Origin: Squalus acanthias
Lineage: Eukaryota
DNA: 64,000 nucleotides
Assembly: GCA_030390025.1 (NCBI GenBank)
Contig: CM059432.1
Coordinates: forward strand, 78,246,001 to 78,310,000
Direction of reading: 5' to 3'
This document shows, piece by piece, positions 1,676-56,571 of the stretch. Within the stretch, counting starts at the first letter, position 1. Each line of letters opens with the position of its first letter. The notes below the pieces were generated by a model, which saw only the letters and a list, made by a program, of their open reading frames with translations, searched no databases and was not told the origin of the DNA. The position numbers and the translations under genes are program-made.

Positions 1676-1847
1676 GGCCTTTTTGTGTTCTGTGGGCTGA
1701 TCACTGGCTGTTACTTCTGTTGCTGCCTCTGCTGCTGCTGTAACTGTTGCTTTGGTAAATGCAAACCCAAGTCCCCAGGAGAAGAATACGAATACTACGT
1801 CTCACCAGAGGACCTGGAAGAACAAATCCGCACGGACATGGAGAATG
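1676..1847 (+). CDS. DNAJC5B: Cysteine string protein (DNAJC5 family, DNAJC5B-like), penultimate coding exon with the cysteine string
   Basis: Polypyrimidine/cag acceptor ending 1675 and gtaagt donor at 1848; 172 nt encoding [69 protein letters not shown] resembles CSP-beta. The J-domain exons lie upstream of the window. Paralog assignment is inferred. Confidence 0.9.
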
Positions 1848-3490
1848 GTAAGTGCTAAAGGGAAGGTACCTGTTCTCCTTCAGCTTGAGCCTTACACGGA
1901 CAAGAAGCATCGGGTTAGTCCTGCGAGTGCTCAATTGACCAGAAAATTTGTAAAATTTTGGCCCTGATATTCTTCTTCCTAGAGCCTGGAGAATGTTCAG
2001 TTCCTCAGTGAAAAAGAGGCGAGACTCACGGCACCAGGTCTCCACCTTGTTGCCCTGAGATTTCAAGGGCATCCCCCGGGGGCACAGGCACAGGGTACCC
2101 TGCCTATGCCTACTACTGATGCAGGCATTCTAATAACATGGATATGAGGGGGAGGGGCCAAACCGCATCTCCCGTCACATTTTCCATTGGGAATGGATGG
2201 TGAGCACCCATTTTGAGGGGTGCCCAGAAAGCTAACCTAAGGGTCTGAGAGGAACATAGGAACAGGAGGAAGCCATTTAGCTCCTCAAGCCTGTTCTGCC
2301 ATTCAGTGAGATCATGGCTGATCTGCGACCTATATACCCATCTTTGCCCCATATCCCTTAATACCTTTGGTTAACAAAAATCTATCTATCAGATTTAAAA
2401 TTAACAATTGATCTAGCATCAATTGCCGTTTGTGAAAGAGAGTTCCAAACTTTTACCACCCTTTGTGTGTAGAAGTGTTTCCTAATTTCACTCCTGAAAG
2501 TTCTGGCTCTAATTTTTAGACTATGCCCCCTAGACTCACCAACCAACAGAAATAGTTTCTCTCTAGCTACCCTATCTGTTCCCTTTAATATCTTGAAAAC
2601 TTCAATCAAATCACCCCTTAACCTTCTAAATTCTAGAGAATACAACCCTCGTCTCTGTAATCTCTCCTCTTAATTTAACCCTTGGAGTCCAGGTATTATT
2701 CTGGTAAACCTACGCTGCACTCCCTCCAAGGCCAATATATCCTTCCTAAGGTGAGGTGTCCTGAACTGCTCACAGTACTCCAGGTGTGGTCTAACCAGGG
2801 CTTTATATAGCTGTAGCATGACTTCTCCCCCCTTGTATTCTTGTCCTCTAGATATAAAGGCCAGCATTCCATTAGCCTTTTTGATTATTTTCTGTCTGTT
2901 CATGACATTTTAATAATCTATGTACCTGGACCACCAAGTCTCTTTTACCTCCAATGTTTTAAGCTTTTCACCATTTAGAAAGTACCCTGTTCTATCTTTT
3001 TAGGTCCAAAGTGGATGACCTCACATTTGCCTACATTGAAATTCATTTGTCACAGTTTTGCCCATTGGCTTAATCTATCAATATCTCTTTGTAATTTTAT
3101 GCTTCTATCTACACTGCCTACAATGCCGTCTATCGTTGTGTCATCGGCAAATTTGGATATGTGGCTTTCTATCCCATTATCTAAATCGTTAATAAATACA
3201 GTGAATAGATGAGGCCTAAACACAGATCCTTGCAGGACACCACTAGTCACATCCTGCCAATTAGAGTACCTGCCCATTATCCCTACTCTCTGTCTCCTGC
3301 TGCTCAGTCAATTTTGTAACCAGGTCAATAATTTGCCCTCACTTCCATGGGCTTCAACTTTAGTTAACAGTCTCTTATGAGGGACTTTATCAAATGCCTT
3401 CTGGAAGTCTATATAAATAACATCCATAGACATTCCCCTGTCCAATACTTTAGTCACCTCTTCAAAAAATTCAATCAGGTTTGTCAGGCA

Positions 3491-8439: not shown

Positions 8440-9530
8440 AGGCAGCTTGCTCTACCTCTCTGCAGCCTTTGACATGGCGACTGCACCGTCCTCCAACGCT
8501 TCTGTTGTCGAGCTCCATGCTTACCTGTCCTATCTTAGCCAGAGCATCTCCAACAATGGCTTCTCTTCCCGCCCCTGCACTGTTGCCTCGAGTTCACCAA
8601 AGATCAATCTGCCTCCTCTTCCTCAGCTACCTGCTGCCCCTCAGCAACATTATCCAAAGACACACTGTCCGGTTCCACACGTATGCTGACGATACCCAGC
8701 TCTGCCTCTCCACGACCCCTCCACGACCTCTGTGTTGTCAGACTGCTTGTCCGACACGCAGGCTTGGATAAGCCGCAGTATCCTCCAGTTAAACATTAGG
8801 AAGACAAAAGGTGTTGTTTTCAGCCCTTACCACAAACTCCATACCCTAGCCACCAATTCCATCCCCCTCCCTTATCATTGTCTCAGGCTGAACCAGACTG
8901 TTCACAATCTCTGTGTCCTATTCGACTCTGAGCTCAGTTTCTGACCCCATATCCTCTCCATCACAAAGACCGGCTACCTTTACCTCCGTAACACTGCCCG
9001 TCTTCCTCAGCCCATCTGCTGCTAGAACCCTCATCCACGCCTTTGTCACCTTTAGACTAGACTCAACTATTCCAATGGTCTCCTGGTTGCTTCCCATCCT
9101 CCACCCTCTATAAACTGCAGTTCATCCAAAACTCTGCAGTCTGTATCCTATCCTGCACCAAGTCCCTCAAACCCATCACCTCTGTCCTTGCTAATCTACA
9201 TTGGCTCCAAAATTCTCAAAATTGAAATCATCATCCTCATATTTAAATCTCTTTAATGCCTTGCTCCTCCCTAACTCTGTAACCAGGCCTACACTCCCCT
9301 CCCCTTCCCCAAATGCTTCATTCCTCTTGTGCATCCACCCTCGTTTCACCCCGACATTGGTGGCCGCGTCCAGGTCCCACGCTCAGAAATTTCCTCCCTA
9401 AACCTCTCCACCTCCCTCTCTTCCTTTAAGACTGTCCTTAAAATCCACCTCTTTGACCGAGCTGCTCATCACCCCTCATAACTCCTTCTTTGGCTCGGTG
9501 TCAATTTCTGTCTGAATTTACCCTGTGTGT
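8440..9530 (+). mobile_element. L2 LINE 3' fragment
   Basis: LSAAFD, FHTYADDTQL, LNIRKT and LIHAFVTFRLD remnants. Confidence 0.8.
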
Positions 9531-10119
9531 CACCGTGCAGCACCTCGCTAGATCTGCATCAAGAAGTCTTCCTAAAATGAACAAAATACTTAGCGCTGCA
9601 TAATTTAAAATCTCTAAAGATTTTTAGAATCAAATGTATTGTAAACAGAATACACATTAAAGACTAATTTTAAATGAAACAAACAATGGCATTTCTGTTA
9701 CCAAATGCATCTGGTGGCCGTCCGCAGTTTATCTTGTGTTTTCTGTGAAGCACCTTGGGATGTTTTTCTATGTTAAAGGTGCTATACAAATGCAAGCTGT
9801 AACAGCAAGATAATGAAATACTGCAGTGAATGTGATATGTGGGAATTCAAAGCATTTAGAATCTCTTCACCAGTGGATGCCTCGTGATAAACCTGCTCTC
9901 CTGTTACTCATCGGTCACATCTTACTGTTGAATGGAAGACTGTCAGCTTATTTTTAGAAGTTAAGCTTTTATACTTTATTTAGCTTCAATTTACAACTGT
10001 TTCATGGAATTTACTCCTCAGTGCTTTCTGTTCTTCAAAAAACCTAACACTGCCAGGGCCAGAACTGTGATTGACAAGATCGAAGTATAAAAGACTGTTT
10101 GGATAATTATTTTTGAAAT

Positions 10120-12876
10120 TTGTTTATGGGATGTGGGCGTCGCTGGCAAGGCCAGCATTTATTGCCCATCCCTAATTGCCCTTGAGAAGGTGGTGGTGAG
10201 CCGCCTTCTTGAACTGCTGCAGTCCGTGTAGTGATGGTACTCCCACAGTGCTGTTAGGTAGAGAGTTCCAGGATTTTGACCCAGCGACGATGAAGGATCG
10301 ATGATATACTTCTAATTCAGGATGGTGTGTGACTTGGAGGTGGTGGTGTTCCCATGCGCCTGCTGCCCTTGTCCTTCGAGGTGGAAGAGGTCGCGAGTTT
10401 GGGAGGTGCTGCCGAGGAAGCCTTGGTGAGTTGCTGCAGTGCATCTTGTAGATGGTATACACTGCAGCCACGGTACGTCGGTGGTGGAGGGAGTGAATGT
10501 TTAAGGTGGTGGATGGGGTGCCAATCAAGTGGGCAACTTTGTCCTGGATGGTGTCGAGCTTCTTGAGTGTTGTTGGAGCTGCACTTATCCAGGCAAGTGG
10601 AGAGTATTTCATCACACTCCTTACTTGTGCCTTGTAGATGGTGGAAAGGCTTTGGGGAGTCAGGAGGTGAGACACTCGCCGCAGAATACCTAGCCTCTGA
10701 CCTGCTCTTGTTGCCACAGTAATTATGTGGCTGGTCCAGTTAAGTTTCTGGTCAATGGCGACCCCCAAAATGTTGATGGTGGGAGATTCGGCGATGGTAA
10801 TGCCGTTGAATGTCAAGGGGCGGTGGTTAGACTCTCGCTTGTTGGAAATAGTCATTGCCTGGCACTTTTGTGGCGCAAATGTTACCTGTCACTTATCAGC
10901 CCAAGCCTGAACGTCGTCCGGGTCTTGTTGCATGCGGGCATGGACTGCTTCATTATCTGAGGAGTTGTGGATGGCGCTGAACACTGTGCAGTCATCAGCG
11001 AACATCCCCATTTCTGACCTTATGCTGGAGGGAAGGTCATTGATGAAGATGGTTGGGCCTAGGACACTGCCCGAGGAACTCCTGCAGCTGAGATGATTGA
11101 CCTTCAACCACCTTCCTTTGTGCTAGGTATGACTCCAGCCAGTGGAGAGTTTTCCCCCCGATTCCCATTGACTTCAGTTTTACTAGGGCTCCTTGATGCC
11201 ACACTCGGTCAAATGCTGCCTTGATGTCAAGGGCAGTCACTCTCACCTCACCTCTGGAATTCAGCTCTTTTGTCCATGTTTGGACCAAGGCTGTAATGAG
11301 GTCGGGAGCCGAGTGGTCTTGGCGGAACCCAAACTGGGCATCAGTGAGCAGGTGCCGCTTGATAGCACTGTCGATGACACCTTCCATCACTTTGCTGATG
11401 ATTGAGAGTAGGCTGATGGGGCCGGATTGGATTTGTCCTGCTTTTTGTGGACAGGACATACCTGGGCAGTTTTCCACATTGTCGGATAGATGCAGTGTTG
11501 TAGCTGTACTGGAACACAAGTCTTCAGCACGATAGCCGGGATGTTGTCTGAGCCCATAACCTTTTCTGTATCCAGTGCGCTCAGCCGTTCCTTGATATCA
11601 CGTGGAGTGAATCGAATTGGCTGAAGACTGGCTTCTGTGATGATGGGGACCTCAGGAGTAGGGCGATATGGATCATCCACTCTGCACTTCTGGCTGCAAA
11701 CGCTTCAGCCTTGTCTTTTGCCCTCAGGTACTGGGCTCCACCATCTTTGAGGATGGGGATATTCATGGAGCCGCCTCCTCCTCCTCCCTTTAGTTGTTTA
11801 ATGGTTCACCACCATTCATGGCTGGATGTGGCAGGACTTTGATCTGATCCGTTGATTGTGGCATTGCTTAGCCCTGTCTATAGCATGCTGCTATCTGCTT
11901 TTTAGCATGCGTGTAGTCCTGTGTTGCAGCTTCCCCAGGTTGACACCTCATTTTTAGGTACACCTGGTGCTGCTCCTGGCTTGCTCTTCTGCACTCCTCA
12001 TTGAACCAGGGTTGGTCCCCTGGCTTGATGGTAATGGTAGAGTGAGGGATATGCCAGACCATGAGGTTACAGGTTGTGGTGGAGTACAATTTCTGCTGCT
12101 GCCCCACAGCACAGCGCCTCATGGATGCCCAGTTTTGAGCTGCTAGATCTGTTCTGAATCTATCCTATTTAGCACAGTTGTCGTGCCCCACAACACGATG
12201 GAGGGTGTCCTCAGTGTGAAGACAGGACTTCGTCTCCACAATGACTGTGCAGTGGTCACTGCTACCATGAACAGATGCATCTGCGACAGGTAGATTGGTG
12301 AGGACGAGATCAAGTAGGTTTTTCCCTCATGCTGGTTCTCTCACCACCTGTTGCAGGCCCAGACTGGTAGCTAGGTCCTTCAGGACTCTGCCAGCTCCGT
12401 GGGACAGACTGGTTTGGGACATTGGCTGAAAGGTATGATTCTAAGTATGACTAGTCTGTGGGACAGCTCTCCCAATTTTGGCACAGGTTCCCCAGATGTT
12501 GGTGAGGAGGACTTTGCAGGGTCGGCTGGGCTGGGTGTGCTGTTGCCGTGTCAGTCCACATTCTTATTATTGTGTTTCATAGCGATTTGTTATAACTGAG
12601 TGGCTTGCTAGGCCATTTCAGAGGGCAGTTAAGAATCAACCACATTGCTGTGGGGTCTGGAGTCACATATAGGCCAGACCAGGTAAGGACATTAGTAAAC
12701 TAGATGGGTTTTTATGACAATCCAATAGTTTCATGGTTACCATTACTGATACTAGCTTGTTATTCCATATTTATTTAATTAACTGAATTTAAATTCCCCA
12801 GCTGCCGTGGTGGGATTTGAACTCTCATCTATTGGATTATTAGCCCAGTGACATTACCACTAGGCTACTGTTCCCA
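10120..12876 (-). mobile_element. CR1/L2-group LINE (APE-RT remnants) with a tRNA-like 5' head
   Basis: RT ALDIKAAFDRVWH, GSVLGPT and MFADD; APE LDLVLTN...SDH near 12260-12320; C-terminus KKAAHHHLLKGN; A box TAGCCTAGTGG (12857-12867, minus) and B box GTTCAAATCC (12813-12822, minus). Confidence 0.8.
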
Positions 12877-15045
12877 CAATTCTGTATAAGGGACAAGAAT
12901 TGATGACTTATTGTTAACTAGCCAGGTTTGTGGTCCTTGGAGGATCGGAAACATAGAAATAAGCAGGGATAGAGTGGATAAACAGCAGAAAGCAGTGGTT
13001 TATTTCAGGTAAACTGCGGATGGCCATCAGATGCATATGGCAACAGAAACACCATTGTTTGTTTCATTTAAAATTAGTCTTTAATGTGTATTCTGTTTAC
13101 AATATATTTGATTCTAAAAATCTTGAGATTTTAAATAAGGCAGCACTAAGTTTTTCGTTCATTTTAGGAAGACTTCCTGATGCAGATCTCGTGAGGTGCT
13201 GCACGGTGACACACAGGGTGAAGGCACAAAAAGCCAAGACTGGTGGGGAAGAAAGTTTGAAATACATCTTTACTTTTTGTTAGTAGACAACTGTTAGAAA
13301 TGTGTTTCAAAAGTAAACACACTGGGAAGAGGGAGTTCACTGAAACACACTCGACCCCAATAACTGAAAGGGAACAAAGTTCCCACAGTGGCTTGATGGA
13401 AAAACAAATCACCCAGCATAGACTACCAGGATAATTGTACTGTCACAGCACCTATAAACCCATGGCATCATCTGTACAGTGAGGGACTTGCTGCTTTATG
13501 GAAGGTTTTGCAATATCTTGGCCAGCCTGCCACACTGCCTTTCTATTTTTAAATGTTGGAAAGAGATAACTATCCCAGCATCCCCTTATAATCATCCTAA
13601 ATTTCAATGGCATTCAGAGGCTAGTGATCAGAGCTCCATGTACAAGTCTGAGTAAGTATGCACAGAGCTCTGATCTCCCCTGCTCAATAGCAATGAGAGT
13701 GAGTGGTGTAACTATGGCTGCACTGCTTTTATAGATGCCCCTGATTTTGCTGTCCACAATATGTAGAAGTGGGGCATTAGCATGAATAAGGCTGGTCAGA
13801 GTTTCTTTTGCTCACTCTTTCAGAATGACATTTGTGTCAATAACTTACTATTTTTGAGTTGTATATTATTTTTTCACACCCACCCTGGAAAAGGGATTTG
13901 ACTGAAGTACAATTTCACAGGAGCTGGCAATCCCCATTCCCAGTATTTATTCTTCATGTGTGAGCCTAAACAGTGTATTTCAGCAGGCTATTCTAACATG
14001 AGGGCATCACTGCAAAGCCCAATCATGTCCTCACCCAAAGTACACTCTCAGTTTCCAGCAGGGAATGCAATGCAGTTATTGAACAGTGATCAGGAGCAGG
14101 AATTTCTTCTCGGAACAGTCCAAACTTTGAACCTGGGAATTTGCTGGTCTGAATCTAATTAAATGGTGAATTTACTTGGTGAGTCACGTGAGGAAGCCAA
14201 GTAATGTATTTTTAAAGAGGCACCATCTAAATATAGTGACTACTGTGTGGAGCTTATTCCTTCCACTGGAGACATGTATCATAGTGTTTAACTGATCATG
14301 TTACACTCTCCTGAAAATCTACTTGTATTTAAATTCTGTTTTCCTAATTCATTTTGTGTAGGAACCCCTTGAAAACAGTGCATTTGTTGATTCTGACACC
14401 GCATAGTGCTACAATTGATTTTCATTTACTTTGGAAAAAGGTGGGAATTTCCAAAATAGGAAACAACATTCCATTCTACCATATGCAGTTCACTCAGCGG
14501 CTAATACCAGGGAATGTTTCTTCAGCTGCCTCCCTTGCTGAAATAGATTCTATCAATGGTTTAACAGTAGATCATCCCTTGAATACTTGCAGTACTCTCT
14601 GCATTGTATATAATTTAAGTGCACAGTGAAAGCATGACTTGTTTTGATACAATGAAAACCCACTTTTAGCATGTACATCAACAACAGAATATTAATTATT
14701 ACTAGAATTTCATTTGGTCTTGTTTCCAGGAGGTGAAATTAATTAATTATGGATCAATAATGTTCAGTTTTTGGGAACAAAGGGCCATAAATTCAACATC
14801 GTTGCCCTGTAAAACGGGCCCAAAAATAACCAATTTGCTGGTTGATCAGAAGGACTGAGTTTTGCTGAAACAAATGCGAAGCTCACAGTAAATAAATCAA
14901 AAATTGGTGTTGTATGCTCTTCCAAAGCTTTGTTTGATATAATATCAGATTGTATATTTTTTGGCTTCAGAACAATATGTTGAGGCATATCCAAACAGCA
15001 TTTTAATGCGCTGTTTCCTTACTACTTGTTGCTTTGTTGTTGCAG

Positions 15046-15140
15046 ATGGAGAGACTCCGATCGTGCTTCAGCCTACAAATGCAAATGAAAAAACTCAGCT
15101 TATTGGCGATGGTCGACGTAGCTACAACACAGATCAGTAG
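15046..15140 (+). CDS. DNAJC5B: DNAJC5B-like final coding exon
   Basis: ttgttgttgcag acceptor; a phase-1 join with the 1676-1847 exon gives [31 protein letters not shown], matching the recalled CSP-beta C-terminus ([13 protein letters not shown]...RSY.TD). Confidence 0.9.
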
Positions 15141-18050
15141 AATTTGAGAGAGTAGGAAGTTGAGCTGAAATTCCAGACAACCTTTACAATGTGGACATGT
15201 CATGGAGAGAGGTTGCATTTTTTCATTTGGAAAATGAAGCCATCAACTACCGATCTTGACATTACTTAAAAGACCATCATCAATTGTACCCACAACTGTA
15301 AAGCAGTTTGAAAACCTATCTATAAGCAGAGTTCAGTGTTGCTTTGTTGCTCTAAGCACTTCAAAATCAAATCCCTGTTTTTTCTCACTTTTTACCTTTA
15401 TAACATCATCTGGAAACAAGCATTCAATTATTTTAAACACTTCTGGTGACTATTGTGTTTAATATACTTTTCCCTCAAATATATTGTCATATTTTGTATA
15501 CTGTGTAACCAAATTGCACCTTTTTGGATAAGCAGATGTATTTTATTAAATAGACTCCAACTAACGTGAGGCTGGGAATGAAAACTAACACCTTCCTTCC
15601 ACTTTACTAGCTATTCATTGCCCCAACAGTAAGAAAGTTAGAAATGAATCTTTCGCTACTAAATATTGTAGTAGTTCTGCTGCTTGCTACTGCATTCTTT
15701 GTGATTGGGATATTGGCACTGCACCTCTGGAAAATAATAGACTGACTGACCTGGTTACAGCTGTAACGCAAGGACTGGGTGACAAATACAGGGAGGAGTA
15801 AGACCAGCACTTCAATCATTTATAGTTTAGAAGCTCTGTGAAGTACAAATGAACTGTGCTAGAGATTTTAGCAAGATTTCTCAGGTCAAAAAAATTTAAT
15901 TAAAAGGATTTGATCAGATGCAGTATAGGAATTATTTGATATGCCTTTGGAGCAGAGACTGTAATGTATTTCTGACCTATCTCAACCATAATCTCAGTTC
16001 AGTCATCTACATTTCAGCTCTCTGATTACTGGATTCCCTTTCATAGCTTTCATAAGATGCACATTTCTCGAATAACCAAAATGAATAAATTTCTAACTTT
16101 GTGTACAATAGAATTAGAGAAATATCAAAACCATAGAAAACGTTGTAATTCCCTGCATTCTTGCAGTAAATTCAGGAGCAAACTGTCATTTTGTAGTTTA
16201 TTTTGGTGTTAACATCTTCATTCAGTGCTCAGACTTAAAATGCATCTGCTTTTCACTCCTTTATGGACTAGATTTAAATATATTTATATTCTATTGAATT
16301 ATCATGCAATCCTAAATCTTGTAAAGAGATATTTCTGTGCTTACTTTTATCTTTCAGTCGCAACGTATCTTGCTTCATAATCGATGGTTAAAGAAAGTCT
16401 TGAAGCAGACATTTAAAGAGTAATTTAATAACTTGGTGTTCCTGGTGTGGAGCCTCACACCCACTTGACCCCAAGAGCACATATCAGACATTTCAGCCTG
16501 TACTGTGCCGGGTGTTACAACCACCTCAAGCACAAAGTTGTAAAATGACCCCTTTAGTGTAAAGCTTCCTGTCCTATGATACAATGAAACTTTTCCAGTT
16601 GCACCCATCATCGAGGCAATTCTGAATGCAATTCGTCATTCATGATGTCACTAGTACAGAAATTTACTAGCCTACATTTTTCATGTACCCCAGGTAGCAA
16701 GGAACCTTGCTTGCCACCAGCACATACTGGAATTTCTGTCCATTGAAATTGTACTGATGAGGGGGAGGTTCCCCATCTCAAGCATTCAGAAAATGTAGCT
16801 TGTTTCTGCCTCTAAACATGAAGCAGAGTAACCATGTGTGTGCATAACTCTCCCTTTATAACTTTTTGGATTGTTGGACAATTCTATTACTTCCTGTTTA
16901 AAAACATAAAGAATATTGTCTTCTATATCTTCTATCCTTCTCGTGTAACTAAAGATCGTTAAATAGCAACATCAAATATGTTTTAAAAAATAAATTACAG
17001 GAAGGTTTTCTGAAGGCAAATATATGATGCAACTTTATGTAGGTTTCATTTTAGAATATGAAACAGATTGATTTTGCACAAAGGGATGTTATCTTTGTCA
17101 ATATTATTTAAAAAATGAATTGTTTAAAAATTAGCAATTGATTTGTGTAGTTTACTTATTTTCTTTAAACAATATTGTAAATTGCTGTAGTTAATGCATC
17201 AAGACATCTGTGTGTGATGCTACTTGTATTTTGCAAAACTTGTCACTTGTAAAGACCAAAGCCCTGGTTAACCACTTTCCTTTGTTCAGTCCATTGTGGG
17301 AATATTGTCTGTCCATTGGAGTTAAATCAATTGTGAAGAAAGTGTGAATTTGTAGTTTTGGATATTTTAATACTAGACCAATTCATATTGCAGGCGGCTT
17401 CAGGTGTTCTCTGTTGTAAGTTGCTACCTTTAGCCACTGTACTTGCCTGACTACTTGGCTTCACTTCTTTGGTATTTACCCATCACGATATGATACAAAG
17501 TGCAGGTGGTGTGAATGAGAAACAAATGGAGATGTAAGAAAACAATACTAATTTTCTGACATGTAAAATGTAAAGCACAGTTCTCAGAAATGCAAGCATA
17601 CTACATAACTAAATATTTGTTAGTGGATATTAGTATGTGGTTACCATCCCATCCACTGCTTGCTGTGAATTCGGAGCATTAAAAAAGTGGGAAAGACTAG
17701 TAAGCTCTGTGAAAGAACATTCTAAGCTTTTTGCACTACACTTAAACCAGCTGAGGATGACAAAGGACAAATCAACATTTCTTTTACCTTTGTATTTAAT
17801 GTTTACCTAAATTTTTCTTTCTGTTCTGTTTGACTAATGAATATAAACTCAGACTATGAGAAAAGAAAAAATACAGTATTTGAACGAGAAAACTACTTGA
17901 TGTGTATGGTTGCACTGAAGCTTAACAAAATAAAAAACGGAAAAAAGTGATGAAAGTGTTAGCAAAATGTCTGCAATCAGAAAAATGATTTCATATTTAT
18001 GTTTTGTGTATACATTTGCCTATGTGAAAGAATCAGTATCTTATTAAAAA
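15141..18050 (+). other. Probable long 3'UTR of the DNAJC5B-like gene
   Basis: AT-rich stretch with no recognisable repeats after the stop; candidate polyA signals AATAAA near 16084, 16989 and 17929, and ATTAAA near 18043. The true end is unknown. Confidence 0.45.
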
Positions 18051-19801
18051 GTGTACTGTTCTAAACAGAGGCCTACACTTGCTGAATGCTGACTAGAAGT
18101 CTGATATTTCAATATCTACACCTTTTTTGGTTATATTATAGAGCAGATTTTATGAATTTGCTTTCCCAGCTCACAGCTTCGTGCAACAGGCGCACATACT
18201 GGGATTTGGATGTGAAGATCACTAGGCCCTTCACAATTTTTTGACATTAATAGATGGAAAATTCTATAGATCCTGTTGACTTCCATCTCATATTCTTAAT
18301 GAGATCCTGACGCACAAAGCTCTACACTGGGAACGCAAATTTGTAAAATTTGCTTTCATGTCTCTGTTAGGTCATTTTGCACCACGCACTGAGCCAATGT
18401 TCCATTCTGCATAGCCAGTGGTGCCAGCATGGAATGGGTGAGTGTGGCTGAGTAATTGTGTTGAGATTCATAGTGCTGTGCCTCATCCATTTTGTTGATC
18501 TGTTTCCTTGCACAAAATGTGTGAAGGCTTCATTTCAATATAATATATGCTAATATCTGCATAAGTGCAATTCCCAATTTTCCTGCAGGCACTGAGCTCA
18601 GATCACCCATATGAAATATGTCAGCCTAGTTCAGGACTGGTGGGAAGTGATTCCTTCAAGGACTACCAGTTGTATTCTTCCCATGATGACTTCCTTAAAG
18701 TGGACACTAATGGGTAGATTTTCCAATGAACATACAAAAATGACAGGCAGAGAAAAGACCAGATGGCCAATCAAGCCTACCCCACACTCATGGTTGGAGC
18801 ATCATGACTAATGTGCACTTTTGGTGTACAATTTGTGTTTTGCATTTTATTGGCCAAACTTAAACATTTTTGATTAGTCCAATTAAAAATTAGAATATGT
18901 GAATTCCTTTGGGGCATCCTCATTTTGTGTTATTTAGAAGAGGAGGAGGATGAAAGAATTGATGTGAGGCAGACTTCCTACCCACACAATTGTATGTAAA
19001 CCTAGACATCATTACCTGGAACTGTCTGGAAGACTGCCCTCACCGATTCTGCTTCACCATGGAGGCAGTGGTGGAATTGTGCTATCTACTAGAATCAACA
19101 GTGGCATTCGGGTCATCACAGCCCTGAACTTTTACAGCGCAGGCTCATTCAAAGTTACCAAAAGTGGCATCAGCAACATCAATGAATCAAACAGGTCACT
19201 GCTGTGAAGTTCGCCAAGGCAAACACCTTCATTACTTCCCCACTGGAAACCTGGCAGCAGAATAAGAGGTCCTGAAATGTTTCCACTTTGCAGGATTCTC
19301 CAAACAGGGATGATATATAAATATCTTCCCATTTGCTGGTCCATATGACTGTTAATATTGTCCATATCCCCTGCAGTCCATGCTATCTTACAAACTCCAA
19401 TGGGTACTCAGTTACTTTGTGAATAAAAGCCACAAATAAAAGTGACTTCTCTTTGTGGAACATGCTCCTTCCACCTCTGGAACATTGCCCGTTTGGGCCT
19501 CTAGGTCTCTCTGCCACCAAAATCCTAATCTATACCTTCATCACCTTCATTGATATTTCAAATGCTCTCTTCACTGGCCTTCCCTCCTACAACCTTCACA
19601 AACTCCAACTAATTCAGAACTTCAGAGCCCAAGATCTCTCTCTCTTACAATCTCCTATACTCATCATCCCTGTCCTCAGTGCATTGACTTCAAGGTGCTT
19701 GTCCTCATTTTCAAATCCCTCCACAGTTTCACCACCATATCTGACCAACTCTCTCCAACCTGCACCTTCCATCCCTGTGACTCCAGATTATTTCTATATG
19801 G

Positions 19802-20208
19802 GGTACGGTAGCATAGTGGTTATGTTACTGGATTAGTAATGCGCGAGTAATCCAGAGGCCTAGACTAATGATCCATGAACCAGGAGTTCAAATCCCACCA
19901 CAGCAACTGGGGAATTTAAATTCAATTAAATAAAACTGGAATAAAAAGCTAGTGTCAGTAATGATGACCATGAAACTTGTTGTAAAAACCCATTTGCTTC
20001 ACTAATGTCCTTTAGGGAAGGAAATCTGCTGTCCTTACCTGGTCAGCCTATATGTGACTCTAGTCCTACAACAATGTGGTTGGCTCTTAACTGCCCTCTA
20101 CAGTTCAAGAATGGCAGCTCACCACCACCTTCTCAAGGGCAATTAGGGATGGGCGATAAATGCTGGCCTTGCCAGCGATGCCCACATCCCATGAACAAAG
20201 AGAAAAAT
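19802..20208 (+). mobile_element. tRNA-derived SINE sharing both ends with the LINE at 10120-12876
   Basis: A box TAGCATAGTGG 19809-19819 and B box GTTCAAATCC 19886-19895; 3' end nearly identical to the LINE's 3' end (cagttcaagaa...gggatggg...cccacatccc). Confidence 0.8.
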
Positions 20209-20326
20209 GTCTCCAACCTGCACCTTCCATCTCTGTGACTCCAGATTATTTCTCTATGGTGGTACGGATATGCTTGTTCAGCTTTACTACAGGAGGCTTT
20301 ACTAAATGGCTGACTCCAGAGACTAT

Positions 20327-21196
20327 GGCCACGATTTTGTCATCGGTGTCGGGTTGGGTGCAGGACAACTGGTTTCCAGCTTCCAGTCCCACCCCCAGCT
20401 GCATCCGCTCCACAGACTTGATTGACCTTGTTAAGCCCGCCCTGCGGGCTTGTCGGCCAATTACCAGGAAGCAGGTCTGATGATGTCATTTAATGACGCA
20501 TCATCTGCTGGTTTCCTTAAAGGGACCACACACAATTTTATTTTGACAATTGATTTCTCAGTATTTGACAGCATTGAGGTGCTGAAAACACTGACAATCA
20601 CTGCACAAAGGTGACCTCTTGCATCCAGGCTCTCCAATGACTCCCTCCATATGCTGGAATAGATGGCAGCTGCAGGTGAGGTGACAGAAGCGATCTGTCA
20701 CTGGTGAGAGAGGTCCTCCCAATGAGGTAGCACTGGACATATAGTTGGATTTAAAATTGTAAGCTAAAGAAATCTGTAAATGTTTTAAAAATGCAGTACC
20801 CAACATTTTCTTTGCTCTGAAACTCACCATGTGCAACATTGGATCCTTCACACCACTTCTGCAGCTGTCATCATTCCACAAACATCACAGCAGACTCAGA
20901 ACACGCCACACTTACCTGGCATGGTGTCCGGATGTCGGGAAAGCCGACCCAGAAGCGGGAAAATCCCAAAACAGGCTGAAAACTACTGGCAAGTACCTGT
21001 TAATAGGCAGGTAATTGCCTTTAATCCGCTTCCCGCTGCTAGGTCTTGGGTCCATTTGCAAATCGGGGACCCGACACTTGGGAAAGCTGTTTGGAGGTGG
21101 GTTGACGGCGGATTCGGAACCCGCCGTCAATCAAATCGAATTTAACCTCTGACCCGCGTCCAAACCCGCCCTCTGAGCGCTGGCAAAATTGCGGCC
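20327..21196. mobile_element. Harbinger-like non-autonomous TIR element
   Basis: TIR GGCCACGATTTT...AAAATTGCGGCC with 3-bp TSD TAT; its right end is homologous to the right end of 21305-24082. Confidence 0.7.
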
Positions 21197-21304
21197 TATG
21201 ACCCAAAGTTCTAGACTCTCCAGCCAGGGGAAACAGCATCTTAGCATCTACCCTGTCAAGCTCTCTAAGAATTTTATACATTTCAATAATCTTAGAGCCA
21301 TTAT

Positions 21305-24082
21305 AGCCGCGATTTTCTTCTTGGAGGCGGGTTGGCATCGGGAACGGTGCTCACGGGTTCCGGTCTCACTGCCAGCTCCAACCGGCCTGCTGACACAATT
21401 TTTGGTTAATTGGGCTAGTTAAGCCCGCCGTGTGGGTTACCCACCCCGATCACAAGGTGCGGGTCTGCTGAGCTGCTCTGTTGACGTGTTTGCAGCTGGT
21501 GCATTTAAGGGGGCCATTTCCCCATTAGATCTCAGGTCATTTCTGCTGCTTCTCACCACAATGTCTGCAAAGAAACAAAAGGCAGCTCCCCGCTTCAACG
21601 ATGACTCCCTCCATGTTCTTGTGGAGGGAGTCAGAGGATGTCGGGAGGTCCTATACCCAGCTGATGGAAGAAGGAAACCTCCTCAGCAGACAAAGGCAGC
21701 CTGGCTGCGAATAGCTGAGGAGGTCAGTGCCAGGTCCATGTACCTGGGTCCAATGCAGGAAAAGGTTCAATGATCTCCTGCGCTCTGGAAAAGTGAGTAT
21801 AAAAGCACACTTACCTTAATTCTGCTGTGCTTGTCATAACATCCCCATCACTCTGCATTGGTAACCCTACTCCTGCACATCCTAACATCCTAACAACTCA
21901 ACCCAACATCCCTTGCACCATCCCCCATCCCTCTCTCCCTATGCACAGAATCACTTCCCCATCTTACTATGCACCCCTCACACCCACCCTCAAGGTTATG
22001 CAATGACAACAACTAACAACTCAAAAGGAGGGAACTCCATAATGGGAACCCAATCCTTCACAGTCTCCCTCTAAACATCTATCCTATCCATTCTTTACAC
22101 GCATTCCATCACTCTCACTGAAACTCCACTTCTTTCCCTCATTGCAGGAAAAGATAGGCCACAATAAGAGAGAGAGGGAGAGAACAGGAGGAGGGCCACC
22201 ATCCTTATCACAGCTGACCAATGCTGAGGAGGCCGCTCTGGACATTTTTGGACAGCTCGAAGTGGGGGACGGAGAGACGGGCTCAGTTGAACAACCTGGT
22301 GACAGAATGCATCTCCATCCATCTTACTTGGCTTTCATGAATGACACATATGGCATCTGATGTCAATAAAAATTGAATGCTCATCATGTACACATTGGGA
22401 TGTGTCTGCAATCTACATATCACATGTCTAACTCCTGTCTTTACTCTCCCACAGGACCATCAAGAGCCCCCCTCCCTACTGTCCAGTTGGAAGAGCAGGA
22501 GCACTCCTCAGAGGATGCTGCATCCTCTGAGGGAGCAGCATCAGCAGCAATGAGCACACCAAGCACCAGCGCAGAGACACACACCTCGGTGGGTCGTTTG
22601 CGAGATAGAGTAGTGTTGTCACCTGATGTATCACAACGCACGAGTGAGCAAGAGCAGATGATGGAGACAGGGACAGCCATGGAGAGTCCTCGTTGGAGGC
22701 TGCAGGACGCTCCTAGCTCTGCTCAGCTGCATGTAGACGCTGAGCCTCAGGGGCCATCCAGAAAGAGATCAGTGCTGAGCTTCAGGAACAAGTGCAGGAG
22801 GCTCTGACTGGGTTTGCAACCACGGTAACAGCGAGTGTGCAGAGAATAGAGGAATCCATCTCAAACATGAGCAATGTCGTGTTGCACGCAATCGTGAATG
22901 TAGGTCCCGCCATGGAAAGGATGACAACCTCCACGGAGGACATAAATCGCCAGACTCAAATGAACATGGTGACTCTTCTAAATAGATGGTCAGCTATGGA
23001 GGATAGATGGGTATCTATTGAGGAGAGGAACCAGAGGTACATGGACGTCCCCATTATGAGGACTGTCAGTACAGAGACGGGTCCACATGGCCCCACTAAT
23101 GTGCAGCAAGGTGCTCTTCAACTACTTGCTAGCAGAGAAGTGCGGGTGGCCCATGAGAGGGATGATGGTGGGAGGCGACATGCAAGTGGGGGCTCCTCTC
23201 CAAGCACTCCAACTTCCATCCCCTTGCCAAATCCTCGGTCAGAGCCCCAGATGACTGCCGGAGCAGTGATGGCCGAGTCTGCCCCTGTGCAGCCACAGGA
23301 GGAGCAAACTTTGGCAGGGCCTTCAAAGGCTCCAAAACCCGGAGGACGACCACCAAAGGCGTCTAAGCAGGCACAGCAGGGAAGCGAGCAGGCTGTCTCT
23401 ACATCTGCTGAAACCACAGGGGTAGCACAACGTAGAAGCACGCGTAAGAGAAAGCTTACACATAGATGATCACAAGGGTACTCACTTGGGTGTTCTGATA
23501 GAATTCAATGTTAAGTTTCTGTTCTTTTATTATGTTTGAATAAATTAATCTTCTATGAACGTTTGACATCGTTGCCATTTGTATGCTCACAATTTGAGGT
23601 GGCACAGTGAAGGGTGAGGGTGCCTTTTATGTCCAGCAATGCAGGTGACAGTGGATATAGAGTTAACAACAGACACTTACAGCCTCAAGACCGCCTCCCA
23701 AATCGTGAAATCAGCAACCTCTGACATTTGAAATTGAGCAGATTTGATAGTGCAGCTTTTAGACTGCAGTAGCAGCTGTGAAGTTTCCAGCTCGTTGGTC
23801 TTCCCGACACACTTACCTGCCGTGATCTCCGAACGTCGTGAAACCTGAATAAAATGTTGGGAAATCAAAATAGCAGTTAACAAGCACTTAACAAGGAGTT
23901 AAGTGCCTTAACCCTTACCCGCCGCTTGGTGTCGGGTCTGTTGTGAAATTGCAGACCCGACACTCTTGAAACTCACACGGAGGCGGGTTCGCTGTGGGTT
24001 TCCAGCCCGCTGTCAATCATTGTGAGTTTAACACCTGACCTGCCTCCGAACCCACCCTCTGAGCGCCGGCAAAATCGCGGCC
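21305..24082 (+). mobile_element. Non-autonomous PIF/Harbinger-like transposon carrying a Myb/SANT gene
   Basis: TIR AGCCGCGATTTT...AAAATCGCGGCC with 3-bp TSD TAT; internal spliced Myb/SANT-like gene; no DDE transposase visible. Confidence 0.75.
21561..23469 (+). pseudogene. Three-exon Myb/SANT-like (MSANTD/NAIF1/MYPOP-type) DNA-binding protein gene, frameshifted
   Basis: Exons 21561-21792 (gtgagt donor), 22148-22298 and 22455-23469. Motifs APRF...LVEGV...KAAWLRIAEEVSA, TWVQCRKRFNDL and EKIGHNKRERERTGGG; basic C-terminus RRSTRKRK; AATAAA near 23539; frameshifts near 21740 and 22780. Confidence 0.75.
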
Positions 24083-24293
24083 TATGTCTCACCTCTGTGG
24101 AACTCTCCTGAAATCAGTTTTTCTTGTGACTTTTCTCTCTTCCTTCAAAAGCCTCTTAAAAACCAATCTTCTCGATTGTGTTTCCCCTCCCGCAAATCTT
24201 TCCTGTCTTCTTCTTTGTGCCCTCATCTGAATGCCCTAACTAAGCACTCTGAGATATTCTTCTGCATGAAGGGCCTTTATAAATGCAAATTAA

Positions 24294-27713: not shown

Positions 27714-27786
27714 CGAGTCAGGCAGGAGTCGAACCTGCAATCTTCTGATCCGTAGTCAGACGCGTTATCCATTGCGCCACTGACCC
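27714..27786 (-). tRNA. tRNA-Arg(ACG), copy 1
   Basis: GGGTCAGTGGCGCAATGGATAACGCGTCTGACT-ACG-GATCAGAAGATTGCAGGTTCGACTCCTGCCTGACTCG; 73-nt cloverleaf with A and B boxes; T-run terminator just downstream. Confidence 0.95.
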
Positions 27787-33485: not shown

Positions 33486-33558
33486 CGAGTCAGGCAGGAG
33501 TCGAACCTGCAATCTTCTGATCCGTAGTCAGACGCGTTATCCATTGCGCCACTGACCC
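33486..33558 (-). tRNA. tRNA-Arg(ACG), copy 2
   Basis: Identical over all 73 nt to copy 1; downstream T-run terminator. Confidence 0.95.
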
Positions 33559-34010
33559 CACAAAAATGTAACTTCGCCTCTCACTGATAATAGTGGTAAC
33601 ATCGATACAAACTTTAACCTCATTCACTGACCCGCTTTTAAATTGCGGAATCCTTTACAACCAGCGTTCCCTCACCAACAGCCGCTGCCCGCAGCTGGTT
33701 CGACTTCACTTGTCGCCCTTTCTCCGCCTTCTCATAATGAAGGCAGAAGCTGCACCCGCAGCAGAATGAAGTTTACGGACGAGTGTCCGTGGTGGAAAAT
33801 AGAGTTTGATTCCGGGATAGGGCAGCCCCTGGACTCCAACCTGCAGCTGCAGGCAGATTAGTTCGGAGTAACAACCTGCCCTCAGTAAGTGCAGGCCGTC
33901 CCCGGAGTAACAGCTTGTGCGTGCGGGGTGCTCTCGGAGTATCAGTTTGTGTAGGAATGGATGTAGGCTGATCCCGGAGTATCAGTGGGTGCAGATTGAT
34001 CCTGCAGCAA

Positions 34011-34506
34011 CAGCCTGTGTTTGTTTGGGTGCAGACTGATCCCAGATTAACAGCCTGTGTTTGAGTGGGTGCAGACTGATCCCAGATTAACAGCCTGTGT
34101 TTGAGTGGGTGCAGACTGATCCCGGATTAACAGCCTGTGTTTGAGTGGGTGCAGACTGATCCCGGATTAACAGCCTGTGTTTGAGTGGGTGCAGACTGAT
34201 CCCGGATTAACAGCCTGTGCTGGAGTGGGTGCAGACTGATCCCGGATTAACAGCCTGTGTTTGAGTGGGTGCAGACTGATCCCGGATTAACAGCCTGTGC
34301 TGGAGTGGGTGCAGACTGATCCCGGATTAACAGCCTGTGTTTGAGTGGGTGCAGACTGATCCCGGATTAACAGCCTGTGCTGGAGTGGGTGCAGACTGAT
34401 CCCGGATTAACAGCCTGTGTTTGAGTGGGTGCAGACTGATCCCGGATTAACAGCCTGTGTTTGAGTGGGTGCAGACTGATCCCGGATTAACAGCCTGTGC
34501 TGGAGT
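34011..34506. repeat. 40-bp minisatellite, ~12 copies
   Basis: Unit cagcctgtg(tttg/ctgg)agtgggtgcagactgatccc(g/a)gattaa, head-to-tail with no spacers; more degenerate units extend left to ~33850. Confidence 0.95.
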
Positions 34507-34715: not shown

Positions 34716-34804
34716 CCTTCGATAGCTCAGCTGGTAGAGCGGAGGACTGTAGAGGCTTAGTCCAGGAAATCCTTAGGTCGCTGGTTCGATTCCGGCTCGA
34801 AGGA
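34716..34804 (+). tRNA. tRNA-Tyr(GTA) with a 16-nt intron (34753-34768)
   Basis: CCTTCGATAGCTCAGCTGGTAGAGCGGAGGACTGTAG + intron + ATCCTTAGGTCGCTGGTTCGATTCCGGCTCGAAGGA, the canonical vertebrate Tyr sequence; T9 terminator at 34810. Confidence 0.97.
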
Positions 34805-35116
34805 CAGAATTTTTTTTTACAATTTCAGTTTTTTGCTGCAATTTTTTGCCGATAATCGCGTCAATTTTACAGGACATTTTAAACCAAAATAAATATTTTA
34901 CGGGAGATATTTTACCAGTCTATGCATTTATACTACTGGATTAGCAGCCATGTTTACACAGGCTGTACACAGCGGCTATGTACACAAGAAAAGAAAGACT
35001 GGCATTTATACAAGGCTTGCATTTATTACAAGTGCTCTGTACACTTGGGCTGTACACAGGGGCTCTGTCTGCTGCCCTTTGTGTGATCTCTTGGTTTGGT
35101 TCAGGTCGGTCTCAGA

Positions 35117-55200: not shown

Positions 55201-56571
55201 GACGCCATGTCGGCGGGTTGACGGGGGGCCATGGCGCCCAGGATGGGGGACATGGTGTTCATGTCGACGAGGCGGTGACGAGGGATGTCTACCAGTAGGC
55301 CGTGGGCGCACAGGAAATCTGCGCCGATGAGAGGGGAGAGCACCTTGGCAGTGATGAACTCCCATCGGTAGCGGCGACCAGCGAGGTCGAGGGTGACTGT
55401 CCAGGGTGCCGTACGTCCGGATTTCCGAGCCGTTAGCAGCAGCCAGCGCCGGTCGTCGTTCGCCCTTTTGGATGTCGAGGGAGGAGGCCGGGATGATGCT
55501 GTGCTGAGCTCCAGTGTCGCACAGGAACCGGCGGCCGGTTTTGTCATCCGTGACGTACAGCAGGGAGCCCGCGTGGCCCACGGCCATCGCGGGGGCTGGT
55601 ACGGGGGCGGACTTGAAAGAGCAGGGAGGTGTGCACCGTTGTGCCCTGCCGCCGAACCGTGCGTGGTAGTAACAGTGGCCCGGGTTAGTGGGGCGCGAAG
55701 GCCCCGTGGGCCTGGTGGCTGGTCCTTGTGGCCGTGTGGTGGCCGGTGAGGGGCACGCCCAGGCATTGGCTGCCAGGTCCGGAGTGACGTCGTGGCTGGA
55801 GTGAGCAGACAGCAGCTTGTCGGCCTCATCGGCCAGGGCTTCCAGGTTCGTGAGGCCGAACACCACGATCGCTGGGCGGATGCTGAGAGGGAGCTGGCGG
55901 ATGAACAGCGTGCGGAAGAGGGATCCGGGTGGGCTCTCGTCGGTGAGGGAGAGCATGTGGGAGAGGAGGTCTGACGGTGAGGCATCACCGAGGCCTGGAA
56001 GGTCGAGGAGCTGGCAGTTTCGCTGATATGCCGAGGCCGTAAATTTTTTAAGGAGCGCTGCCTTGAGATGTGCATACTTGCCTTCCTCTGGTGGGTTCTG
56101 CAGCGCTGTCCAAACCTTCGAAACTGTGGCGCTACCGAGTGATGTGACGAGGTAGTCGTACTGCGTCCCATCTGTGGTGATGTTTCGCAGCCGGAAGCGG
56201 GATTCAGCTTGGAGAAACCAGGCTTTGGGCTGGTTTTCCCAAAACTCTGGCAGTTTCACGGAAACTGCGTTCGTGTCCGCCATTGCAGTGCTCGGAATAC
56301 GTTCTGAGCGTCGGGGTCACCAATGTTGAGGCTGCCGCGAAACACGAATTAAGACTGAATCCATGTGTGGGAAAACAAAGGCTTTTTAATACAACTGCAT
56401 GGTCCAAAATGGCTGAACCGACTGCTCCCAGAATTCTCTGGAAAAATCCTGAGGCCCCGCCCACTCCTTTTCTCCTGCCTTAAAGGCAAGGTGCCTTAAA
56501 GGCAAGGTGCGCGATATATTGTCCACGGACGGAAAAGTGGATAATGCTCGTTTAGGTGGCGATCCGCCACA
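52212..56571 (-). mobile_element. Full-length Ty3/Gypsy LTR retrotransposon, CsRn1 clade
   Basis: LTRs 52212-52458 and 56324-56571 (TG...CA; ~5 substitutions and 1 indel); TSD GCTC; PBS TGGTGACCCCGACG (56309-56322), complementary to the tRNA-Trp 3' end; PPT ggggggag next to the left LTR; Gag CHCC knuckle. Confidence 0.95.
52479..56283 (-). pseudogene. Gag-PR-RT-RNaseH-IN polyprotein of the Gypsy element, disrupted
   Basis: Gag AVSVKLPEFW and CYYHARFGGRAQRCTPPC; protease FLCDTGA; RT YLDD; RNase H TDAS; integrase HVDIVGP/SDRGPQF/ERFH and GPY. One frameshift near 55400 and in-frame stops at 55152 and 53487. Confidence 0.9.

Follow-up and report, generated by a model that had tools for sequence, protein, structure and literature searches.

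A CR1-Zenon LINE of Squalus acanthias with a tRNA-type 5′ head, and a short element with the structure of its internal-deletion derivatives

LINEs and SINEs are divided by polymerase, LINEs being transcribed by Pol II and SINEs by Pol III (Kojima, 2024, PMC10886601). In the same account, the processivity of Pol III restricts the elements it drives to about 1.3 kb or less, and autonomous partners (this was said of LTR elements) must use Pol II, Pol III being weakly processive. Like the LINE described here, the TRIMp3 elements Cassandra, Helenus, and Ajax are non-SINE retroelements with Pol III promoters derived from small RNAs, but they are non-autonomous LTR elements of 311-1,263 bp that encode no protein (PMC10886601). 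RTE-1_DAn and related elements are described as LINEs of the autonomous type with tRNA-like sequence that matches many SINE2 elements (Kojima, 2018, PMC5786205); they belong to the RTE clade, unlike Zenon, and the likeness is one of description, as the available part of that paper gives neither the position nor the role of the tRNA-like part. The bipartite SINEs Bov-tA, AfroSINE, SINE2-1_ACar, and others likewise share 5′ and 3′ parts with a partner LINE, but there the tRNA head was joined after deletion within a LINE that has no head (PMC5786205), whereas the Zenon LINE itself bears one. Among cartilaginous fishes, SacSINE1 and CmiSINE (PMC5499810), as well as HE1/HER1, are tRNA-headed SINEs with LINE-derived tails; the partner of the chondrichthyan SINEs is described as L2, with the tail alone in common (PMC5499810), and this description sets them apart from the Zenon element.

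The closest systems are Zenon elements and their derivatives. Persaeus is a SIDE of lepidopteran (moth) Zenon in which the 5′ and 3′ ends of Zenon are joined by internal deletion, with repeated origin and short direct repeats at the borders, but it lacks both homology to tRNA and a Pol III promoter (Wang et al., 2019, PMC6740152). In elasmobranchs, the family is represented by SquAca_Zenon-1, -2, and -3, CarCar, RhiTyp, ScyCan, and HypSab, which have no ORF1, carry a poly-A tail, and measure ~3.3 kb, with consensus lengths of 2,886-3,314 nt (Stuart et al., 2026, PMC13343379). 'CR1-Zenon like' is the name used by Weber et al. (bioRxiv 10.1101/443036). The words tRNA, polymerase, and promoter do not occur in the main text of PMC13343379, and its available part describes no short derivatives.

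We analyzed a window of 64,000 nt of S. acanthias DNA that contains a minus-strand LINE and, about 7 kb away, a short plus-strand element (Table 1). The LINE is a decayed, 5′-complete copy of an elasmobranch CR1-Zenon element; its placement in the Zenon clade is taken from PMC13343379. It has one EN-RT frame, no ORF1, and poly-A. The frame is collinear with that of P0002, a full-length relative that carries Exo_endo_phos and RVT_1 domains, and contains an FADD motif at ~11002. Unlike the published consensuses, this copy is decayed: stops, frameshifts, and deletions disrupt the frame, and ~130 endonuclease codons are gone near 12430-12395. The absence of ORF1 is evident from the ~80 nt that separate the end of the head (12596) from the endonuclease start (12515). 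This leader codes for a basic stretch resembling that of L004, an invertebrate relative (protein-level local alignment, P=0.003, best of three frames). Within the head, one of two short hairpin repeats between the A and B boxes of the Squalus consensus is missing, and a 24-nt deletion in the body lies between two GTCCTT repeats. The 3′ region (10125-10216) is predicted to fold (z -3.9; 0 of 200 shuffles). Both window elements have A-rich ends, and the poly-A of the LINE is supported by plus-strand poly-T loose ends at 10118 (631 contigs) and 10128 (694 contigs). The L2-like and CR1-like copies in the window are 24-36% identical to P0002 and have no tail in common with the Zenon element.

Table 1. 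Features of the two Zenon elements in the window
Feature	Position	Strand	Remarks
CR1-Zenon LINE, decayed, 5′-complete	10119..12875	-	2,757 nt; by eye, 5′ end agrees with the opening letters of SquAca_Zenon-1
tRNA-like part of LINE head	12809..12875	-	A box 12867-12857, B box 12824-12813
Non-tRNA body of LINE head	12596..12808	-	~210 nt; shows conservation across the consensuses of sharks and rays
Leader between LINE head and endonuclease start	12516..12595	-	short; no room for ORF1
Single APE-endonuclease/RT frame	10172..12515	-	Pfam RVT_1 E 2.5e-13; tblastn with full-length relative P0002
LINE 3′ UTR with stem-loop, then A-rich tail	10119..10171	-	short
Short-element head	19801..20099	+	A box 19809, B box 19884
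Short-element tail and A-rich end	20101..20208	+	corresponds to the LINE's last ~14 codons and 3′ UTR
Direct repeat, left copy	19752..19808	+	57-58 bp; likely target-site duplication
Direct repeat, right copy	20210..20267	+	94.8% identical to left copy

The two elements share both of their ends, as an earlier note on this DNA had claimed. The common head, ~280 nt with A and B boxes, aligns between LINE positions 12875-12620 and 19801-20099 of the short element with identity in 217 of 243 ungapped columns (score 239; maximum of 300 shuffles, 27). The note's second match, between the last ~100 bp of the short element and the LINE 3′ end, also stood: LINE 10216-10119 and 20101-20199 are identical at 94 of 98 positions (score 171; shuffle maximum, 29). 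When both strands of the whole 64 kb were searched with an A-box/B-box consensus pattern, five pairs were found, three in tRNA genes called by ARAGORN and one in each of the two heads. Neither head could be aligned with the three tRNA genes. Rfam returned 10 weak matches in 9000-21000, the best of them tRNA at 12809-12868 with 23.1 bits (E 0.46), which is below the gathering score of 29 and alone not significant; the head of the short element had no match.

To place the LINE within its family, we compared it with the published elasmobranch Zenon consensuses (Squalus x3, Carcharodon, Rhincodon, Scyliorhinus, and Hypanus; supplement of Stuart et al., 2026, PMC13343379) over the first 400 nt. Over this stretch the LINE shows, by eye, high identity with its published counterpart: ~15 substitutions and four indels separate its 5′ ~310 nt from SquAca_Zenon-1, and exact 16-17-nt motifs of the window recur in SquAca_Zenon-1 and -2. 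In the same 400 nt, all seven shark and ray consensuses, from five species, begin with the head and run through the junction into the leader (by eye), while none of three hagfish and coelacanth Zenon consensuses has the head. Two exact B-box strings occurred three times each in the 5′ 400 nt of the 1,003 consensuses of that paper, in every case in elasmobranch Zenon. Since all seven consensuses run from head to leader, the head-ORF junction is family-wide, and the concern of the earlier note that it might be unique to this locus is ruled out. A chance adjacency or one-off chimera, with which the lack of a detectable target-site duplication around the LINE (best repeat 7 bp, away from the junctions) would agree, is refuted by the same seven consensuses and can be dismissed. 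Judging from sequence, an ORF1-less Zenon LINE with a tRNA-derived, SINE-type head as its family-wide full-length 5′ end is very probable. Even if the polymerase is Pol II, the tRNA-type head is an unremarked structural feature of the published Zenon family.

The short element is well supported as an internal-deletion derivative of a Zenon LINE. It is a SIDE in that both its ends have homology to those of a single autonomous LINE and the middle is missing. At 408 nt, non-coding, with a partner-LINE tail and a head bearing A and B boxes, it also falls under the 700-bp size criterion for SINE2 and has the boxes of a SINE2 head, the tRNA similarity being weak (Rfam below threshold, in the LINE copy only). 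The retained tRNA-type 5′ end gives the shark derivative its SINE2 appearance, which Persaeus, without such an end, does not have. Because its head differs from that of the LINE at positions by which the Squalus subfamily consensuses can be told apart, the short element was not derived from the LINE copy in the window. The last letters of the left direct repeat appear to overlap its 5′ end, with ACGG as microhomology. Identification as SacSINE1 or HE1 was considered and not adopted. Five exact motifs of the head body, sought as a Deu, CORE, V, or Meta SINE central domain, occurred 0 times in the searchable supplements of PMC4824008 (two files), PMC7245038 (two), and PMC11481361 (eight), exact matching being blind to distant homology; five exact motifs were likewise absent from all searchable paper texts.

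The route of the deletion differs from that proposed in the earlier note, in which a LINE carrying the head spawned the SINE through CAGTT microhomology; the internal-deletion origin held, but the CAGTT junction did not. Because the 5′ homology of the short element ends at CCCTCT (LINE 12620), ~20 nt before the cactCAGTT of the LINE, CAGTT did not form the junction here, barring a further deletion later on. Moreover, at tail position 10215, most family contigs read CGGTT rather than CAGTT (7.2M of 9.1M summed depth in DNA run X1). Among the 15 joints listed of 1,650, nine link head to tail, with 5′ breakpoints at 12586-12653 and 3′ breakpoints at 10182-10253. These joints comprise many different junctions, each in up to 13 contigs, and some extend beyond the head into bases of the LINE leader. 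A microhomology of 4 nt marks one of them (nine contigs), and another retains 10 nt past CAGTT (13 contigs). The exact junction of the short element had no match among the joints listed (15 of 1,650 and 12 of 278).

These data also bear on whether the short element is instead an older independent SINE, made of head, body, and borrowed tail, that passed its 5′ module on to the LINE and continues to propagate on its own. The clustering of 5′ breakpoints at the end of the body (12586-12619 among the joints listed) looks like a fixed module boundary, and L004 and the hagfish and coelacanth Zenon elements have no head; therefore, the module came from elsewhere. Against this reading are the many junctions instead of one, some of them extending into the leader, and the subfamily-level letters that the short element has in common with the Squalus LINE consensuses. 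In run X1, where figures are summed contig depth and not copy number, the head bins had 620k, 492k, and 261k compared to 603k in the bin right after the head (unique flanks, 15-24). A head depth not above the post-head depth counts against a separately propagating SINE, and we regard this alternative as very unlikely. Two other runs gave side observations. In run X15, which we guess to be RNA, the head had 63k and the leader 4.7k; this was not used as evidence. Run X21 gave 155 mostly partial reads; coverage of three of three head bins was partial or absent, and the run was taken solely to indicate a divergent relative.

We propose that an ORF1-less CR1-Zenon element gained a tRNA-derived 5′ module (A and B boxes plus the ~210-nt body) before sharks and rays diverged, and that this module would then have been retained as the 5′ end of the full-length form. 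With a promoter-like head and an RT-recognition tail on one RNA, any internal deletion, possibly by a template jump during reverse transcription or between short repeats, would give a ready-made SINE-like element, and the short element would be one of many such derivatives. Such a one-step SINE origin needs deletion alone and makes head capture unnecessary. The two alternatives of the earlier note, a LINE that captured a SINE head and a LINE that spawned the SINE, would then probably be successive rather than rival. Repeated production of internal-deletion derivatives is known of Zenon (PMC6740152), which speaks for this explanation. When elasmobranch genomes are annotated, short repeats with a tRNA head may be derivatives or 5′ ends of Zenon.

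The most likely role of the head would be that of an internal type-2 Pol III promoter producing the 3.3-kb template RNA, with T runs kept scarce in the sense strand and synthesis of the protein starting independently of a cap. From sequence features, Pol III transcription of the full-length LINE has about an even chance of being correct, and the same holds for the full statement that combines a family-wide tRNA-type head, deletion derivatives, and Pol III as the maker of the template RNA. We hold more tentatively, a little short of even, that Zenon is an autonomous, captured-promoter element whose 3.3-kb Pol III RNA is translated without a cap or in-frame AUG, that it has kept this arrangement since the shark-ray ancestor, and that it repeatedly makes SINEs by internal deletion, in a single step. 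An uncapped Pol III RNA would then serve as mRNA for an enzyme of ~940 residues. This counts against Pol III, as an RNA of that kind needs an unusual translation route and the head body has no significant structure. Also against it are the length limit of about 1.3 kb argued for in PMC10886601, the sub-threshold Rfam tRNA match, the lack of alignment between the heads and the tRNA genes, and the degenerate stingray B box. Very abundant in sharks and rays, with A and B boxes at its start and few T runs, Zenon offers a direct test of the rule that LINEs use Pol II.

T runs that would stop Pol III, a check suggested in the earlier note, were rare. The LINE has one run of at least four Ts in 2,746 nt (TTTT at 10770), fewer than the five closest invertebrate loci (18 in 7,914 nt; P=0.026) or four CR1 copies in the window (31 in 8,779 nt; P=0.002), comparisons in which related copies are pooled and base composition is a confounder (T 20% in the LINE, 23-26% in controls). 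Its observed/expected ratios for TT (0.75) and TTT (0.51) were the lowest of 13 sequences, with AA at 0.98. TTTT was not seen by eye in the first 400 nt of the seven elasmobranch consensuses and was present in three of three others. However, the deficit was not significant compared to the LINE's own shuffles (mononucleotide, P=0.10; dinucleotide, P=0.53). An L2 copy elsewhere in the window likewise had one such run in 1,013 nt.

The shuffle result fits a possible, though less than probable, alternative with the same family-wide structure, in which Pol II makes the full-length RNA, either with head or body as its promoter or by host read-through, and the A and B boxes are of use mainly to the short derivatives or survive as an element bound by TFIIIC. 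LINEs are by definition Pol II-transcribed (PMC10886601), a capped RNA would settle the translation problem, and, by eye, conservation of the ~210-nt body between species is no lower than that of the tRNA part. On the other side, in the published first 400 nt, shark and ray consensuses alike begin where the tRNA-like sequence begins, and TT/TTT depletion is specific to T and to the Zenon lineage among the 13 sequences.

The precise common 5′ end could also mean that the head acts at the RNA level, in 5′-end processing from host transcripts or in ribosome recruitment, rather than as a promoter. This alternative is modelled on the self-cleaving ribozymes of R2, RTE, and Ingi elements, and ribozyme-headed LINEs also give bipartite derivatives. 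Furthermore, ATG is absent from the endonuclease frame of the LINE and, by eye in the available sequence, of the stingray consensus, while L004 has one. We consider this reading unlikely, since the conserved part is the promoter boxes: by eye, the consensuses keep the A and B boxes (the stingray B box is degenerate) but conserve neither the intervening sequence nor the would-be acceptor stem. No acceptor-stem pairing was seen by eye in the heads, neither window head has a significant fold, and the 10 Rfam matches include no ribozyme family. An IRES- or ribozyme-like fold of the head body found no support (z +0.4 to -1.3), and an ATG in the body had no support as an in-frame ORF start.

We also searched more widely for relatives. 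DNA-pattern scans of GTDB genomes, IMG/VR, and JGI metagenomes found no copy, nor did a protein scan of viral contigs; peptides from the head/leader junction and the endonuclease start had no homologue in protein searches, which is weak evidence. An A-B box pair lay within 800 nt upstream of the ORF match in 0 of 34 loci, among which the only close relative is L004, a single decayed copy, and Rfam found no tRNA in 15 related loci. L004 is the closest invertebrate relative with a 5′ end, and an apparent likeness between its 5′ UTR and the head of the shark element lacked significance (P 0.28-0.72). With its threshold lowered, ARAGORN made 909 calls in 83 loci, which we discarded as noise. Matches in the ESM Atlas were to generic EN-RT clusters.

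The decayed Zenon LINE copy and the short element share both ends. Their tRNA-like heads, each with an A and a B box, are identical at 217 of 243 ungapped columns (alignment score 239, with 300 shuffles reaching at most 27), as are their tails at 94 of 98 (score 171, shuffles at most 29), bearing out the earlier note, which had described a LINE and a SINE alike in these parts. A consensus box pattern found five A/B-box pairs on the two strands of the 64-kb window, in three tRNA genes and in these two heads. The window tRNA-Arg and tRNA-Tyr genes did not align with the heads. Rfam returned 10 weak matches in 9000-21000, the best being tRNA over the LINE head (23.1 bits; gathering score, 29). 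The 64-kb window contained no copies of the family besides these two.

Positions of the Zenon elements and other features in the window
Feature	Position	Strand	Details
Zenon LINE copy	12875-10119	-	decayed
Short element	19801-20208	+	
Direct repeats flanking the short element	19752-19808 and 20210-20267		57-58 bp
Young Ty3/Gypsy LTR retrotransposon	52212-56571	-	248-bp LTRs, 97.6% identical
tRNA-Arg(ACG) genes, two, identical	27714-27786 and 33486-33558		within ~290-bp duplicated unit, 77% identical
tRNA-Tyr(GTA) gene	34716-34805		90 nt
40-bp minisatellite	33984-34506		13 copies, between the tRNA genes

Zenon elements, which lack ORF1 and carry a poly-A tail, have been reported from five elasmobranchs (Stuart et al. 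2026, PMC13343379), and window motifs matched the Squalus consensuses SquAca_Zenon-1 and -2 in the supplement of that paper. We compared the first 400 letters of each Zenon consensus in the supplement by eye. The LINE copy matches SquAca_Zenon-1 from the first letters and differs from it over ~310 nt by four indels and ~15 substitutions. All seven elasmobranch consensuses (three from Squalus, and those of Carcharodon, Rhincodon, Scyliorhinus, and the stingray Hypanus) start with the head and join it to the same leader, which removes the alternative that the head-ORF junction is unique to this locus. The head is absent from the start of the hagfish (n = 2) and coelacanth (n = 1) consensuses. 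A search of the 400-letter starts of all 1,003 consensuses in the supplement for two exact B-box strings gave six occurrences, always in shark Zenon families, and the Hypanus B box is degenerate. Thus, the head is a real, family-wide feature of a published LINE family. A conserved ATG directly past the head opens a short frame, which is out of the endonuclease frame in the stingray consensus, and the stem letters of a second inter-box hairpin differ between galeomorph and Squalus families.

The head has apparently gone unremarked on elasmobranch Zenon. The words "tRNA", "polymerase", and "promoter" do not occur in the main text of PMC13343379, and the available text of the literature, including PMC1845163, PMC3531059, PMC4758252, PMC5381603, and bioRxiv 10.1101/443036, contained no description of a tRNA or Pol III head; Repbase, Dfam, subscription journals, bioRxiv supplements, and Zenodo files lay outside this scope and may matter for novelty.

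In the LINE copy, the endonuclease motif KVLLTNIWG begins at 12515, ~80 nt past the head, an interval into which ORF1 cannot fit. The endonuclease and reverse transcriptase occupy a single broken frame with a stop at 10172, and ~130 endonuclease codons are lost. Small deletions are numerous across the copy, at least two of them between short direct repeats; one takes out a hairpin that lies between the two boxes, which cuts the head to tRNA length. The 3′ end forms a stem-loop (z -3.9; 0 of 200 shuffles); the tail of the short element has the same lower stem, yet its z is -0.9. No target-site duplication was detectable around the LINE copy.

We read the repeats around the short element as a target-site duplication with a 4-nt microhomology at the joint. 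Read as such, the duplication shows that the element inserted as a unit and is compatible with deletion before or after insertion. At certain letters, the short element agrees with Squalus consensuses 2 and 3 and the LINE copy with consensus 1; in addition, each keeps segments lost from the other; the neighboring LINE is therefore excluded as its parent. The earlier note had suggested that a CAGTT microhomology could account for the deletion. CAGTT is not the joint at this locus: the head of the short element stops at CCCTCT (LINE 12620), ~20 nt short of cactCAGTT, and most family contigs have CGGTT in the tail instead.

In the DNA sequencing run X1, 217,355 assembled contigs map on the 3-kb LINE stretch. 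Summed contig depth, which does not equal copy number, is 9.6M over the tail and drops to 0.2-1.2M at the 5′ end, the pattern that 5′ truncation would give; head bins (620k, 492k, and 261k) are on par with the first post-head bin (603k), and unique flanks have 15-24. Nine of the 15 joints listed, out of 1,650, connect head to tail (5′ breakpoints 12586-12653, 3′ breakpoints 10182-10253), as do at least five further pairs among the 12 rows listed in a second table. Joint 10182/12597 has a 4-nt microhomology (9 contigs), and joint 10182/12586 retains 10 nt beyond CAGTT (13 contigs). The junction of the short element has no equal among these 15 joints and 12 rows. Since many joints differ, head-tail derivatives formed or were remodelled repeatedly. 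The proposal that a LINE spawned the SINE by internal deletion is thus well supported by the many derivatives and a known Zenon route, but loses its CAGTT joint.

That route is known from Lepidoptera, where Zenon repeatedly yields internally deleted elements, Persaeus (PMC6740152). Like the short element as best read here, Persaeus is an internal-deletion product of a Zenon LINE; as described in the available text, it shows no homology to tRNA and carries no Pol III promoter, whereas the shark derivative has a tRNA-like head with A/B boxes. Chondrichthyan SINEs so far described in the available text share only an L2 tail (PMC5499810), whereas the short element shares head and tail with a Zenon LINE. 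Pol III-type promoters are known from non-autonomous TRIMs (PMC10886601). The LINE family and the deletion route to SINE-like derivatives are known, and the Pol III reading is the testable proposal.

We consider it evenly balanced whether Pol III transcribes Zenon from the head. Counted in favor are the 5′ end, which falls at the start of the tRNA-like sequence, and the A and B boxes: by eye, the published consensuses keep these but neither the acceptor stem nor the sequence between the boxes. Also in favor, the LINE copy has one run of at least four Ts per 2,746 nt, compared to 18 per 7,914 nt in the five closest loci (P = 0.026) and 31 per 8,779 nt in four window CR1 copies (P = 0.002), and its observed/expected TT (0.75) and TTT (0.51) are the lowest among 13 sequences, with AA normal. 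The exact 5′ end and the TT/TTT depletion likewise speak against Pol II making Zenon RNA, which we regard as possible if rather doubtful. Pol II is favored by the lack of significance of the T-run deficit against the LINE's own shuffles (P = 0.10 and 0.53). This point counts against Pol III, as do the short products expected of Pol III (PMC10886601), a window L2 copy likewise poor in T runs, a TTTT at 10770 that may or may not be a copy mutation, and fold tests, which found no structure in the head body accounting for cap-independent translation. The check for Pol III-stopping T runs proposed in the earlier note thus came out divided. A third explanation, that the head acts at the RNA level, appears improbable. 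In its favor, the endonuclease frame has no ATG in the LINE copy and none visible by eye in the Hypanus consensus; this fits unusual initiation, although decay or consensus error could be the cause. Both the lack of a significant fold in the head body and the retention of the boxes but not the acceptor stem argue against it.

Among metagenome relatives (497 loci confirmed, 80 kept), the only close relative that retains a 5′ end is an invertebrate locus, L004. Its basic leader, homologous to the shark leader, includes an in-frame ATG, and no head was detectable in its 5′ region. As L004 and the hagfish and coelacanth consensuses show no head, the simplest reading is that a Zenon LINE would have captured a SINE-type module as its 5′ head in the elasmobranch stem, and that the headed LINE would then have shed deletion derivatives; this reading is built on a single decayed copy from an invertebrate and on three distantly related consensuses. 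"LINE spawned SINE" and "LINE captured SINE head", offered previously as alternatives, would both hold as successive steps. By exact matching, which can miss distant homologs, five motifs of the head body had no hit in the available parts of the supplements of PMC7245038, PMC4824008, and PMC11481361.

Proteins with the Zenon ORF, as exonised pieces or gene models, are labeled Heptranchias, Heterodontus, and Rhincodon; outside sharks, the closest named proteins belong to amphioxus (44-47%). In two shark species, annotated isoforms (P0007, P0008, P0018, and P0021) have exonised the end of the ORF, with KCNH2, a cationic amino acid transporter, a proteasome chaperone, and JMJD8 as host genes. Three bacterial genome records (L081-L083) have short contigs with matches to eukaryotic LINE-like endonuclease-reverse transcriptase, which are probably contamination.

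A 218-bp segment occurs twice, inverted and 91% identical, on either side of the LINE (9517-9734 and 13007-13222), the left copy interrupting an L2 element at its 3′ end; the pair may stem from templated insertion of neighboring DNA or represent a small repeat. The Ty3/Gypsy element has gag-like, RT/RNase H, and integrase frames with stops in between. Fragments at 21423-23469 (+), without Pfam matches, presumably resemble a Myb/SANT-like gene of a PIF/Harbinger transposon and are bounded by inverted-looking or repeated ~290-bp segments (20904-21200 and 23805-24086; 69% direct match). A cysteine-string-like coding stretch at ~1700-1858 (+) resembles what we take to be an exon of DNAJC5/CSP.
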